Below, one piece after another: positions 58,956-64,000 of a stretch of DNA of 64,000 nucleotides (its first letter is position 1; the number at the start of each line of letters is the position of its first letter). Source of the DNA: Escherichia coli. GTDB taxonomy: Bacteria; Pseudomonadota; Gammaproteobacteria; Enterobacterales; Enterobacteriaceae. Made by a program: the position numbers and the translations under genes. The stretch lies in NCBI RefSeq assembly GCF_003991155.1, contig NZ_CP031293.1; one strand, given 5' to 3'. A model generated the notes under the pieces. That model was not told where the DNA came from. It did not search any database and was given only the letters and a program-made list of their open reading frames with translations.

Positions 58956-59906
58956 TTAATTTGTTCTATCTGTTTTCCCCCGCCGGACAATACTGGTCAC
59001 CAGGCGAGCGGCAACTTTCGCAGTTAAATTATCGCGGTCCAGGTCCGGGTTAAGTTCGGCAATATCCGCAGCAATCAACTTCTCGCTACCGGCGATTAAA
59101 TTCACAATGGCTTCAGTAATATTTAACGGCACGCCTAACGGTGATGGAGCAGAAACACCGGGCGCCTGATAACCTGGTAAAACATCGAGACAAATCGTTA
59201 AATAAATGGCGTCACAAGCCTGAATATCTGCCGAGAGCGCATTAGCGATCTCATGCAAACCACGTTCAAATTGCAGAGATTCGTCCAGCCAATAACGCAC
59301 ACCGAGACAATCAGCGCGATCAAATAACGCCTGAGTATTGGCAAAACGACTTATTCCCAGCACGCGATAATGAAACGGTTTGCCATGCTGCGCGTTCCAC
59401 TCTTGCATCTGACGAAACGGCGTACCTGAATTGGCTTGTTCCGCCATCCGTAAATCAAAATGCGCGTCAAGGTTCACAATCAGTAACCGCTGAATATCCG
59501 GACGCGACTGCATAATCCCCTGAAATGTTCCCCACGCCACTTCATGACCGCCCCCCAGAACCACCGGTAAACTGCCGCGCGCAATGGCTGTAGATACGTT
59601 AGCCGCCAGACGATTTTGTGCGGATTCCAGCGCGTGGTCCTCGCTTTGTACATCGCCCATATCGAAAATAGCGCCTTCACAGAGCACTGGCATATTTCCC
59701 AACATGCTGCGCAACGCGCCCGGTCCGCCTGCTGCACCCGCTCGCCCATCATTACGTTGCACTCCGTCATCAACGGCAAAACCAATCAGCGTACAACCGC
59801 CGTGGCTTTGTTCACTAAACGGTTGCACATGCTGATGCCAGCGAGTGCTGATGCCGGTTTCCTGCGAGTCAACACGCCCACTCCACGGCAAAAATGTTTG
59901 CTTCAT
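58956..59906 (-). CDS. hutG: Formimidoylglutamase (arginase fold), 316 aa
   Basis: ORF 58956..59945 trimmed to the ATG at 59904-59906 after GGAG. MKQTFLPWSGRVD... with GGGHE, DAHFD and CLDVL metal-site motifs. TAATG overlap with hutI. Confidence 0.88.
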   Translation of the reverse strand: MKQTFLPWSGRVDSQETGISTRWHQHVQPFSEQSHGGCTLIGFAVDDGVQRNDGRAGAAGGPGALRSMLGNMPVLCEGAIFDMGDVQSEDHALESAQNRLAANVSTAIARGSLPVVLGGGHEVAWGTFQGIMQSRPDIQRLLIVNLDAHFDLRMAEQANSGTPFRQMQEWNAQHGKPFHYRVLGISRFANTQALFDRADCLGVRYWLDESLQFERGLHEIANALSADIQACDAIYLTICLDVLPGYQAPGVSAPSPLGVPLNITEAIVNLIAGSEKLIAADIAELNPDLDRDNLTAKVAARLVTSIVRRGKTDRTN

Positions 59907-61117
59907 TACCAACTCCTTTTTCCGCCGACAATAAGCCCCTGGCAAGGCTGATGCCCAAACCAGTAAGCCAGTTCACGTGGATGATTAAGATCCCAGACCG
60001 CCATATCCGCCCGTAATCCCGGTGCAAGTTCACCCCGGTCAATAAGTCCAAGTGCCTTTGCCGCATTACGCGTAACGCCCTGAACGGCTTCCAGCGGCGT
60101 CATGCGAAACAGCGTACAGGCCATATTGATCATCAATGGCAATGACATATTGGGAGACGTTCCGGGATTATGGTCCGTGGAGATAGCAATCGGCACACCT
60201 GCGGCCCGCAGAGCGACAATCGGCGGCAGATGGGTTTCGCGCAGGAAGTAATAAGCACCGGGAAGCAAAACCGCCACTGTTCCAGCCGCTTTCATGGCGG
60301 CGATCCCCGACTCGCTCAGGTACTCCAGATGATCGCAGGAGAGTGCAGAAAACGCCGCTGCCAGCGCCGCGCCTTGCTGGTCAGAAAGCTGTTCGGCATG
60401 CAGTTTTACAGGTAATCCATAGCTTTGCGCTTTACTGAAAACGCGCCGTACCTGCTCTGGAGTAAAGGCGATGTTTTCACAAAAAGCATCAACTGCATCA
60501 ATCAGCCCCTGTTCATGCAACACGCACATCCAGTCGCAAAGCGCCGTAATGTAATCATCACTGCGCCCGGCAAACTCTGGCGGCAGGCTGTGCGCCCCGA
60601 GAAACGTAGACTGAATATGTAACCCGGTAGATTGCTGCAAGCGGCGGATCACGCGTAAACAACGTGCTTCATCTTCCAGCGTTAAGCCATAACCCGATTT
60701 GATTTCAAGCGTACTGACGCCTTCACGTTGCCAGTTTCGCAGTCGCTGCGCCGCCAGTTCAAACAACTGTGTTTCGCTGGCTGCCCGCGTGGCATTAACC
60801 GTAGATAAGATCCCGCCGCCCGCTCTGGCGATATCTTCATAAGCCACGCCTTGCAACCGCATCTCAAACTCGTTCGCCCTCTGGCCGCCATACACCAGAT
60901 GTGTATGACAATCCACCAGACCGGGTGTCAGCAACTTACCCTGTAGATCGTGTTCCTCTGTAATATCAGCCGTCAGTTCACGGGGGATCTGCGTGGCCTT
61001 CCCAAGCCAGACAATCGAGTCACCACGGCTGATTAATGCCCCCTTTTCAATCACTCCCCAATCGTTAGCGGAAAGCGTCGCCAGCGTGGTATTTCGCCAG
61101 AGCGTTAATGCACTCAT
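59906..61117 (-). CDS. hutI: Imidazolonepropionase, 403 aa
   Basis: ORF 59906..61150 trimmed to the ATG at 61115-61117 (MSALTLWRNTTLATL...). It carries the amidohydrolase motif GLVDCHTHLVYGG. ATGA overlap with hutD. Confidence 0.9.
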   Translation of the reverse strand: MSALTLWRNTTLATLSANDWGVIEKGALISRGDSIVWLGKATQIPRELTADITEEHDLQGKLLTPGLVDCHTHLVYGGQRANEFEMRLQGVAYEDIARAGGGILSTVNATRAASETQLFELAAQRLRNWQREGVSTLEIKSGYGLTLEDEARCLRVIRRLQQSTGLHIQSTFLGAHSLPPEFAGRSDDYITALCDWMCVLHEQGLIDAVDAFCENIAFTPEQVRRVFSKAQSYGLPVKLHAEQLSDQQGAALAAAFSALSCDHLEYLSESGIAAMKAAGTVAVLLPGAYYFLRETHLPPIVALRAAGVPIAISTDHNPGTSPNMSLPLMINMACTLFRMTPLEAVQGVTRNAAKALGLIDRGELAPGLRADMAVWDLNHPRELAYWFGHQPCQGLIVGGKRSW

Positions 61118-61704
61118 AAGGATTTTTCCCCTCGTAGATAATAAAGCCACCAGCCCGCCAGCTCACCGACGGAGACTTTCTTCCGTGGTACGAAACGCCA
61201 GGGCCTGCCATCAGGTGCAACCAGCCATAACAACATATTTGCCGCGACAAACACCCTTTTCTTGCCGCTTATCCACTCCCCTTCACACAGCGTGAACAGG
61301 CCCGCTTGCGCAAGTGACGGAGGACGCCAGTCAACGGCACTTTGCACCCGCAACATCCCCGCATCGCCTTCCCGCGCCATAACATTCAGATCGCGAACCC
61401 CGCCGCCCAGCAGCTGGCAATCAGGCATAGCTTCTCCAGGGAAAATTAAGGCGGGATCGTGACGTTGCAGGTTGATGATCGAATCGGCAAACGTTAGCTT
61501 CACCCCTTCCCCGTCGAGAATCGCGAGGCCACGAACCACGCCAGGCCACGCTGAAAAAGAGCCATCCTGACTGACATTCGCCATACTGATGCGCAACAAC
61601 CAGTTTTCATCATCGGGCCAGGCAAGCAGCTGTCGGGTAAACCCCCCGCCGTTGCGCCACGGTTGCAGCGGCTTATCCATTGCAGAAATCAGCATCGGTT
61701 CCAT
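61114..61704 (-). CDS. hutD: HutD-family protein, 196 aa
   Basis: ...PLQPWRNGGGFTRQLLAWP... is the HutD signature (W-x-NGGG-x-T). Start codon uncertain: ATG at 61704 or the in-frame ATG three codons downstream (61695). Confidence 0.8.
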   Translation of the reverse strand: MEPMLISAMDKPLQPWRNGGGFTRQLLAWPDDENWLLRISMANVSQDGSFSAWPGVVRGLAILDGEGVKLTFADSIINLQRHDPALIFPGEAMPDCQLLGGGVRDLNVMAREGDAGMLRVQSAVDWRPPSLAQAGLFTLCEGEWISGKKRVFVAANMLLWLVAPDGRPWRFVPRKKVSVGELAGWWLYYLRGEKSL

Positions 61705-61705
61705 A

Positions 61706-63115: not shown

Positions 63116-63219
63116 GAAAAAGTCTCCTGCAAAATGAGAGGTCATTTTTTGAAACAGCAATAGAGGGTCGGGAGATATTTCTCTCGACGATGTAAAAATA
63201 TTTTTTGATAATTATTGTT

Positions 63220-63247
63220 ATACAGGCGAATTATTCTCCGCCTGTAT
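63220..63247. other. 9-bp inverted repeat between hutU and the permease gene (terminator, attenuator or protein site)
   Basis: ATACAGGCG-10 nt-CGCCTGTAT, 32 nt downstream of the hutU stop. Confidence 0.35.
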
Positions 63248-63278
63248 TAGCGCAAATATTAAATGACGGCGTTAATAT

Positions 63279-64000
63279 TTAGCGAATCATCGGTAATTTC
63301 AGACCATAGTTTTTGGCACATTCAATTGCCGCTTCATAACCCGCATCCGCATGACGCATAACCCCGGACGCACAGTCATTCACCAGCACACGCGCCAGAC
63401 GTTTTTCGGCTTCTTCGCTACCATCGGCAACAATAACCATCCCGGCGTGTTGTGAATACCCCATCCCGACGCCGCCGCCATGATGCAGGGATACCCACGT
63501 TGCTCCCCCTGCAGTGTTGAGCAAACCGTTGAGCAACGGCCAGTCAGAAACCGCATCACTGCCATCAAGCATGCTTTCGGTTTCGCGGTTCGGGCTGGCG
63601 ACAGAACCGGTATCAAGATGATCGCGCCCAATCACAATCGGTGCTTTTAGTTCACCGTTGCGCACCATTTCGTTGAATGCCAGCCCCGCCAGGTGACGCT
63701 CACCAAGCCCCAGCCAGCAAATACGTGAAGGAAGTCCCTGGAAGGCAATGCGCTCGCGCGCCATATCCAGCCAGCGATGCGTCAGTACGTTATTGGGGAA
63801 CAACTCTTTAATTTTGGCATCAGTTTTATAGATATCTTCCGGGTCGCCAGACAGCGCCACCCAACGGAATGGACCTTTGCCTTCACAAAACATTGGACGA
63901 ATATAAGCCGGAACAAAGCCCGGGAAATCAAAGGCATTTTGCAGACCTTCGTTGAAGGCCACCTGGCGGATGTTGTTGCCATAATCGACAACCGGGATCC
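63279..64000 (-). CDS. hutU: Urocanate hydratase, C-terminal ~240 codons (gene continues past the right edge)
   Basis: The frame stays open to position 64000 (...[55 protein letters not shown]...[18 protein letters not shown]...), typical of urocanase. Confidence 0.9.

Follow-up and report, generated by a model that had tools for sequence, protein, structure and literature searches.

Introduction

The genes for histidine utilization (hut) are arranged in different ways in different bacteria. In the classic enteric locus of Klebsiella and Salmonella the order is hutIG-hutC-hutUH. The Pseudomonas locus contains hutU-hutTu-hutH and further genes, hutCD, and hutF together with a hutG of the N-formylglutamate amidohydrolase (FGase) type. 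The locus described here lies toward the end of a 64,000-nucleotide stretch of the Escherichia coli contig NZ_CP031293.1 (RefSeq assembly GCF_003991155.1), referred to as the window, and consists of hutU, a gene for an NCS1-family permease, hutD, hutI, hutG, and a gene for a 556-residue member of the aromatic-lyase family that has no 4-methylideneimidazole-5-one (MIO) triad. On balance, we lean toward reading these six genes as an operon for the use of urocanate, and of hercynine (histidine betaine) as a source of urocanate, a substrate assignment that draws on active-site residues and gene context.

Lyases of this family that lack MIO are the subject of two preprints on Shewanella enzymes (bioRxiv 10.1101/2025.08.13.670108 and 10.64898/2026.04.22.720169), according to which MIO is required by every characterized ammonia-lyase of the aromatic-lyase family. 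Swoo_3913 of S. woodyi is a periplasmic enzyme that converts hercynine into urocanate and trimethylamine (bioRxiv 10.1101/2025.08.13.670108), and SO_3057 of S. oneidensis is a periplasmic ergothionase (bioRxiv 10.64898/2026.04.22.720169). In the ergothionase Td_ETL, Lys384 is needed for binding of the ergothioneine thiolate and its replacement abolishes ergothionase activity; the same column holds Asn in Swoo_3913 and Gln in SO_3299 (Shewanella preprints). Literature searches found nothing on hercynine or urocanate catabolism in E. coli or on hut genes by phylogroup, and no description of a periplasmic trimethylammonia-lyase coupled to import and assimilation.

Family, fold and active site of the lyase

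Gene identities rest on Pfam and NCBIfam profile searches with curated family cut-offs (in bits: TIGR01228, 375; TIGR01224, 298; TIGR01227, 229; TIGR01225, the HutH profile, 539). The lyase gene occupies positions 57235-58905 on the minus strand and encodes a PF00221 protein (413 bits) that is predicted to be a periplasmic trimethylammonia-lyase. Its score against the HutH profile is 281 bits, about half of the cut-off. The best sequence match in the Protein Data Bank is the Treponema denticola ergothionase 6s7j (phmmer, E 5.5e-85), the match to the Pseudomonas putida histidine ammonia-lyase being weaker (E 1e-49), and the AlphaFold model (mean pLDDT 80) likewise retrieves 6s7j as its top Foldseek hit (E 1e-31, TM 0.80/0.89). 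The Ala-Ser-Gly triad of MIO enzymes is absent from the protein; the corresponding loop, GSIGAADIM, has one residue fewer than that of histidases and matches that of Td_ETL in length.

The initial annotation of this DNA saw neither hutH nor hutC. The window contains no canonical copy of either gene, and in that sense the statement stands, but it is misleading: a histidase-family open reading frame, the lyase gene, lies just outside the coordinates that the annotation covered. The missed lyase, which is MIO-less and bears a signal peptide, alters the meaning of the cluster. An ordinary histidine-utilization cluster, in which the 556-residue protein is a diverged but working histidine ammonia-lyase, is barely credible: the PF00221 assignment and the retained imidazole- and carboxylate-binding residues would fit such an enzyme, but without Ala-Ser-Gly there is no MIO, the HutH score is far too low, and a periplasmic signal peptide would part the lyase from cytoplasmic histidine. 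The usual RefSeq label is 'HAL/PAL/TAL family ammonia-lyase', while a few records, such as NZ_CP142792.1 (H45) and NZ_CP173554.1 (H63), call the gene 'hutH: histidine ammonia-lyase'. The latter label, the one annotation on the side of a histidase, is probably wrong, and searches for enzymes that form trimethylamine could miss the gene on account of it.

A close parallel is Swoo_3913. Both proteins have the PF00221 fold and a signal peptide, and both have lost the Ala-Ser-Gly triad and Lys384. The window lyase retains the catalytic Tyr77, the carboxylate binders Gln308, Arg314 and Asn339, and the imidazole binders His117 and Glu466 (invariant), which are the residues listed for Swoo_3913 (bioRxiv 10.1101/2025.08.13.670108) and are numbered almost identically in the two proteins; the predicted products are again urocanate and trimethylamine. 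The window lyase differs from Swoo_3913 in overall sequence (∼40% identity), in its position on a separate branch of the tree, and in the presence of Ile rather than Asn at the Lys384 column.

Unlike the ergothionases Td_ETL and SO_3057, the window lyase has Ile438 at the Lys384 column and His437 in place of the neighboring, preceding Gln (motif SLHIPFV). At the same two positions, MIO-containing histidases have Gln-Val (P. putida, Comamonas) or His-Val (metagenome contig L092), and because His437-Ile438 resembles these pairs, the pocket appears to be histidase-like on the C2 side of the imidazole. A histidase-like C2 side together with a betaine-lyase-like amine-leaving side is the combination that hercynine would need. 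Lys occupies the column in 103 of the 120 best lyase homologs. Among these 120, the Ile/Val state is confined to Escherichia, to contig L007 (68% identity), which carries an OprD-family porin gene, and to an Enterococcus group (∼60% identity). In a neighbor-joining tree the Ile/Val lyases form one clade, which is nested among the Lys-type periplasmic lyases (52-63% identity to the window lyase) and stands apart from Swoo_3913.

In other lineages, the loss of Lys is accompanied by urocanate chemistry, as in Swoo_3913 (Asn) and in the Sutterellaceae (Asp, motif ATED), the latter giving independent support. The Asp-type lyases of the Sutterellaceae directly adjoin reductases with 44-51% identity to Swoo_3912, a proven urocanate reductase, while Lys-type lyases adjoin a different flavocytochrome (∼30% identity). 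The Sutterellaceae enzymes are predicted from these features to be hercynine lyases of human-gut taxa. Their loci are L062-L065, L068, L069, L071 and L076, together with 22 metagenome loci among L096-L173.

The same residues bear on the possibility that the lyase is an ergothionase, which releases thiourocanate and trimethylamine and might be the 'ergothionase from E. coli' that Wolff reported in 1962. E. coli extracts are reported to show such an activity, to which no gene was ever assigned (PMC13405746), the best solved relative of the lyase is an ergothionase, and the nearest outgroup lyases are Lys-type. This assignment is improbable in view of the replacement of the thiolate-binding Lys384 by Ile, a position at which loss of Lys abolishes activity (Shewanella preprints). 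The downstream enzymes are not thiourocanate-specific either, unlike those of ergothionase systems. Full-length HutU falls below the cut-offs for thiourocanate hydratase (670 vs 930) and S-methyl-thiourocanate hydratase (671 vs 880), and the only hydrolases annotated in the interval between sucD and cydA, within which the cluster lies, are the canonical HutI and HutG, with no desulfhydrase- or hydantoinase-type gene among its annotated genes.

Signal peptide and predicted location

The N-terminus of the lyase has the features of a textbook Sec-type leader, from which a periplasmic location is predicted. The leader, MKGLIRRVTVTVVLWSVCSIAMA followed by K, is encoded at 58837-58905 on the minus strand. 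Its n-region carries a charge of +3, its 13-residue h-region averages 2.15 on the Kyte-Doolittle scale and exceeds every 13-mer of the mature protein in hydrophobicity, and its c-region reads A-M-A. The AlphaFold model shows a helix of low pLDDT at residues 1-21. Relatives with 94%, 91% and 85% identity retain the leader, as seen in E. albertii and at loci L094 and L091. Nearly all Gram-negative homologs of the lyase have signal peptides, of unrelated sequence, while the Enterococcus homologs have no leader and start at the mature N-terminus.

A start at the internal Met22, which would yield a cytoplasmic lyase, was considered and rejected. No Shine-Dalgarno sequence precedes Met22, whereas the ATG at 58905 has AGGA 6 nucleotides upstream and is also the start taken by the NCBI Prokaryotic Genome Annotation Pipeline (PGAP), and the protein sequence of the leader is conserved down to 85% identity.

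Organization of the putative operon

All six genes lie on the minus strand. The order hutU, NCS1 permease, hutD, hutI, hutG that had been read from the sequence is borne out by Pfam and NCBIfam profiles and by PGAP, whose annotation of an identical genome agrees with the gene description given here. The window holds the 3' part of hutU (63279-64000, the C-terminal 239 residues; TIGR01228, 437 bits on the fragment). The complete gene encodes 565 residues and extends to ∼64976, past the window end at 64000. The 722-nucleotide stretch of hutU in the window is identical in strain IAI39 (L001), from which the full-length protein was taken; it scores 934 bits, well above the TIGR01228 cut-off. The permease gene (61706-63115; PF02133, E 9e-51) encodes 469 residues from the PGAP start, an ATG with AGGAG 8 nucleotides upstream, the longest open reading frame beginning at TTG 63160. 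It is followed by hutD (61114-61704; HutD/Ves family, PF05962, 107 bits), for which PGAP prefers the ATG at 61695, and by hutI (59906-61117), which encodes an imidazolonepropionase of 403 residues (TIGR01224, 451 bits) with coordinates that agree with PGAP. The fifth gene, hutG (58956-59906), encodes a formimidoylglutamase of 316 residues that belongs to the arginase family (PF00491; TIGR01227, 292 bits). The HutI and HutG scores both exceed the curated cut-offs.

A base-by-base reading confirms the reported junctions exactly. The permease stop TAA (61708-61706) is separated by one base from the hutD ATG (61704-61702), the hutD stop and hutI start overlap as ATGA (61117-61114), and hutI and hutG overlap as TAATG (59908-59904) with an AAGGAG Shine-Dalgarno sequence upstream. 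The hutG stop is 50 nucleotides from the lyase start, and a scan of this gap found no terminator-like site, an observation to be used weakly; the promoter and terminator scans of the window gave counts at chance level. The short gap without a terminator-like site, together with the conserved gene order, points to one transcript for hutG and the lyase gene. The arrangement as a whole suggests that hutU, the permease gene, hutD, hutI, hutG and the lyase gene are co-transcribed as one operon. The spacer that separates the hutU stop from the permease start contains, at 63222-63245 on the minus strand, a hairpin (ACAGGCG-N10-CGCCTGT) with an A/T-rich stretch after it, which could act as an attenuator within the operon, stabilize RNA or bind a protein.

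Comparison with described hut loci

From urocanate onward, the chemistry encoded in the window is that of the classic enteric hut system, with HutU, HutI and an arginase-type HutG that releases formamide, and hutI and hutG are adjacent and coupled in both. The proposal that the set differs from the classic enteric one is upheld: HutC and a MIO-containing HutH are both missing from it, and HutD, the NCS1 permease and a predicted secreted lyase are present in addition. The presence of HutD and the position of the permease directly after hutU are shared with the Pseudomonas hut locus. The suggested link to that locus fails at the level of the pathway, which is not of the five-step Pseudomonas type: HutG is of the arginase type in place of HutF and N-formylglutamate amidohydrolase, genes for neither of the latter two are found in the sucD-cydA interval, and HutC and HutH are also missing.

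Further hut clusters for comparison are those of Nocardia and Comamonas. The Nocardia cluster (L090; hutC-permease-hutU-hutI-hutG) combines HutU, HutI and an arginase-type HutG with the absence of a histidase, as in the window, and both it and the Comamonas cluster (L089; hutH-hutC-permease-hutU-hutD-hutI) have an orthologous permease (65-67% identity) that adjoins hutU. Unlike the window, both have a GntR/UTRA (HutC-type) regulator and neither has a MIO-less lyase; in Comamonas a hutH-like gene for a 519-residue lyase is present.

Urocanase, permease and the proposed route

HutU is, by its profile scores, a canonical urocanase and not of the thio type, and it is 83% identical to HutU of the hutH-containing Comamonas cluster. 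The permease is predicted to be a urocanate importer of the HutTu type. The P. aeruginosa protein PA5099 is presumably a member of the NCS1 family as well. PA5099, or HutTu, is a described urocanate transporter (PMC12977541). Urocanate import, one of the functions first guessed for the permease, is supported by the orthologs (63-72% identity) that adjoin hutU in Comamonas, in Nocardia and in metagenome contig L092 (hutU-permease-hutH-hutD-hutI), a linkage that spans phyla. As the Nocardia cluster has no histidase, it makes sense only if its permease imports urocanate. In locus L091, a permease that is 85% identical lies directly upstream of an 85%-identical lyase, with no hutUIG genes on the 14-kb contig, so that the permease-lyase pair persists on its own.

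In the route proposed here, the 556-residue lyase would be exported via its Sec signal peptide and, in the periplasm, would eliminate trimethylamine from hercynine to yield trans-urocanate. The MIO cofactor would not be required for this step, as trimethylamine is a good leaving group. The HutTu-type NCS1 permease would then import the urocanate, and HutU, HutI and the arginase-type HutG would convert it to L-glutamate and formamide. The glutamate may enter the pathway of the adjacent B12-dependent glutamate mutase, methylaspartate and mesaconate genes, and the trimethylamine would be released. The proposed use of urocanate differs from that in S. woodyi, where Swoo_3913 is paired with a periplasmic urocanate reductase of anaerobic respiration; in the window the lyase is paired with a permease and the cytoplasmic enzymes HutU, HutI and HutG, which would serve assimilation.

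Regulation

In the 757-bp region upstream of hutU, searches found no HutC operator (TGTA-N2-TACA). Three matches to the Nac-like pattern ATA-N9-TAT occur there and are uninformative in an AT-rich region. No GntR/UTRA (HutC) gene is found between sucD and cydA. A gene for a LysR-family regulator (GcvA-like; PF00126 and PF03466) occupies 56059-56964 on the minus strand and lies 3' of the lyase gene in all Escherichia versions of the locus. Since it is kept in ∼1000 E. coli genomes without the hut genes, it more likely serves the neighboring methylaspartate/mesaconate genes, and a connection with the hut genes is uncertain.

Relatives in other genomes and the substrate question

The surroundings of the lyase, 10 kb around the gene, were surveyed at 79 loci from representative genomes of other species and at 78 metagenome loci. 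Genes for HutU, HutI, HutG, HutD or the permease occur within this distance at none of the 79 species loci. A flavocytochrome gene does, usually directly adjacent, at 67 of them, which include both Lys- and Asp-type lyases, and at 63 of the 78 metagenome loci. Hut linkage is seen at five metagenome loci, all of the Escherichia type; apart from Escherichia-type copies, the metagenome scan added only Sutterellaceae and no new intermediate relatives. Within the data searched, only Escherichia thus couples the lyase to import and assimilation genes. The Lys-type genes adjoin flavocytochrome c genes and the window lyase gene does not, no flavocytochrome c or UrdA-type reductase gene being annotated in the sucD-cydA interval.

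The Enterococcus loci (L004-L006, L012-L014, L025), whose leaderless lyases are the cytoplasmic members of the Ile/Val clade, share a conserved cluster of genes for a sigma-54 activator, a CoA-transferase (PF01144), an MFS transporter, the lyase and an NMO/FMN oxidoreductase (PF03060), and may encode an uncharacterized reductive route for the 2-enoate product. Because no hut genes are present there or at L007, these loci neither confirm nor identify the substrate of the window lyase.

Several observations weigh against the assignment of hercynine as the substrate. The lyase is distant from the proven hercynine lyase Swoo_3913, at the ∼40% identity given above, and its nearest outgroup (62-63% identity) is of the Lys type. 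Its closest relatives outside Escherichia are not linked to hut genes, as they are found in the Enterococcus loci and, at L007, in a hydroxyproline-like context. The non-Lys enzyme SO_3299 acts on N(pi)-methyl-hercynine and on neither hercynine nor ergothioneine (Shewanella preprints). Relatives of the lyase act as homotetramers, and its export is a prediction. No regulator or inducer has been identified, and the 757 bp upstream of hutU contain no HutC, CRP or sigma-54 match. Lastly, the cluster is decaying in many lineages through deletions, a fusion and a frameshift.

Some of these observations favor a different division of labor, in which the hut genes serve urocanate uptake and catabolism only, the lyase acts on another imidazole betaine (for example N-methylated hercynine or a natural product not yet known) whose product does not pass to HutU, and the adjacency of the two is historical. 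The specificity of SO_3299 and the non-hut surroundings of the Ile/Val relatives in Enterococcus and L007 are in keeping with this view, as is the existence of hutH-less modules without any lyase, exemplified by Nocardia. It is unlikely, though it deserves serious consideration, for the lyase gene stays 50 nucleotides from hutG in E. coli, E. albertii and L094 and, in the absence of hutUIG, still adjoins a urocanate-type permease gene in L091. The histidase-like His-Ile pair of the pocket also argues for hercynine, as does a HutU that is canonical and so similar to that of the hutH-containing Comamonas cluster.

With hercynine as the favored substrate, the cluster is most likely, on the evidence of gene content and residues, not simply a histidine cluster that lacks hutH and instead an operon for urocanate that an exported betaine lyase supplies.

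Distribution and history

Positions 56000-64000 of the window are 100% identical to E. coli 2016C-3878 and ∼40 other genomes. Of 5426 complete E. coli genomes, 144 have the lyase gene, in single copy and always on the chromosome, and 97% of the complete genomes lack the cluster; ∼1000 further E. coli genomes keep only the LysR and mesaconate side. The order sucD-(rtcB)-hutU-permease-hutD-hutI-hutG-lyase-LysR is shared by E. albertii and L094. For HutG, identity is 95% with the homologs of cryptic Escherichia clades, 91% with that of E. marmotae and 88% with that of E. albertii, after which it drops to 70% or less. The named matches outside Escherichia among the 120 best HutG homologs (Hydrogenophaga, Rhodoferax, Thiobacillus and Ideonella, 59-70% identity) are all from the Burkholderiales, and Klebsiella and Salmonella are not represented among the 120. 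These matches agree with the initial proposal of a non-enteric ancestry. The cluster is not a recent import, however, because Escherichia species have it at one shared locus, from which deletions are removing it.

Comparison with IAI39 reveals a mosaic allele. At the nucleotide level, the lyase gene is 94.9% and hutI 95.5% identical to the window, while the hutU fragment, the permease gene and both intergenic regions are 99.9-100% identical, and the permease protein is the same in both. This patchy divergence indicates recombination between two old alleles.

Traces of loss are found in several lineages. In O157:H7 FRIK2069 (L003, 8965-9632), the spacer between LysR and sucD contains two lyase and two rtcB fragments, a deletion scar; because these fragments remain, the hut-lyase-rtcB segment was deleted in O157:H7 and not inserted in the window strain. 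A deletion in the gut-metagenome locus L098 (9399-11488) fuses hutU codons 1-203 to lyase codons 62-556 in what looks like one frame, the permease gene of L094 (5538-6946) is split into two open reading frames in an independent decay event, and the copy in L131 is frameshifted. Given that the locus and its gene order are conserved across species and that different deletions occur, the operon is old in Escherichia, and its loss has happened repeatedly.

The absence of the cluster from most E. coli genomes and the O157:H7 scars, together with the L098 fusion, the L131 frameshift and the split L094 permease, would also be expected of a decaying remnant without present function. For the window this is very improbable. 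All six genes are intact there, the gene order is conserved across Escherichia species, and dN/dS is ∼0.05 for both the lyase gene and hutI between alleles that are 5% apart (for the lyase, 0.055 against IAI39 and 0.043 against L091). Where intact, the operon is under purifying selection.

Neighboring genes

The interval between sucD and cydA is the site of alternative islands. In K-12 and W it holds mngR-mngA-mngB; E. coli W was considered as the source of Wolff's 1962 enzyme and rejected, as its locus reads sucD-mngR with no island. In the window, the plus strand at ∼45919-56025 carries glmS, glmL and glmE (glutamate mutase) and genes for methylaspartate ammonia-lyase, an AtuA-family protein, a DUF4387 protein, a dicarboxylate/amino-acid symporter and class I fumarate hydratase, as well as cobO, with the LysR gene convergent to them. 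The adjacency of the operon and the glutamate mutase island is kept in E. albertii (L093). It is a matter of speculation, drawn from this adjacency, that glutamate from the Hut enzymes could feed the glutamate-mutase route.

It had been suggested that the sequence beyond position 64000 be inspected for hutH and hutC. In identical and related genomes neither gene is found upstream of hutU, where rtcB and sucD are present instead. The rtcB gene is a lone RtcB-family gene (465 residues; L002, 15735-17132) that lies just past the window end and is divergent from hutU across an AT-rich spacer of 757 bp. It is linked to the hut and lyase genes and co-deleted with them, and no rtcA or rtcR is annotated near it within the stretch fetched (L002).

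Implications

That Escherichia possesses an ancestral, patchily distributed operon for an undescribed assimilatory route is, in our estimation, evenly poised; in this route a secreted lyase of a new specificity subclade, with His-Ile/Val replacing Gln-Lys, would start the conversion of hercynine to glutamate. Gut bacteria produce trimethylamine, from which trimethylamine N-oxide (TMAO) is formed; the known sources of this trimethylamine are choline, carnitine, betaine and ergothioneine. If the route exists, ∼3% of E. coli strains make trimethylamine from histidine betaine, that is, from dietary or fungal hercynine, and E. coli and its relatives would add both a source organism and a substrate for trimethylamine. 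The lyase gene would also be the first candidate gene for the disputed 'E. coli ergothionase' of 1962. A 2026 article states that E. coli is without an ergothionase homolog (PMC13405746); contrary to this statement, the 144 complete genomes noted above carry a member of the family. For the annotation of the trimethylammonia-lyase family, the His-Ile/Val signature provides a testable specificity rule. The known periplasmic lyases feed respiratory reductases, and the use of the same type of enzyme for import and assimilation in Escherichia would be a clear case of module re-use.

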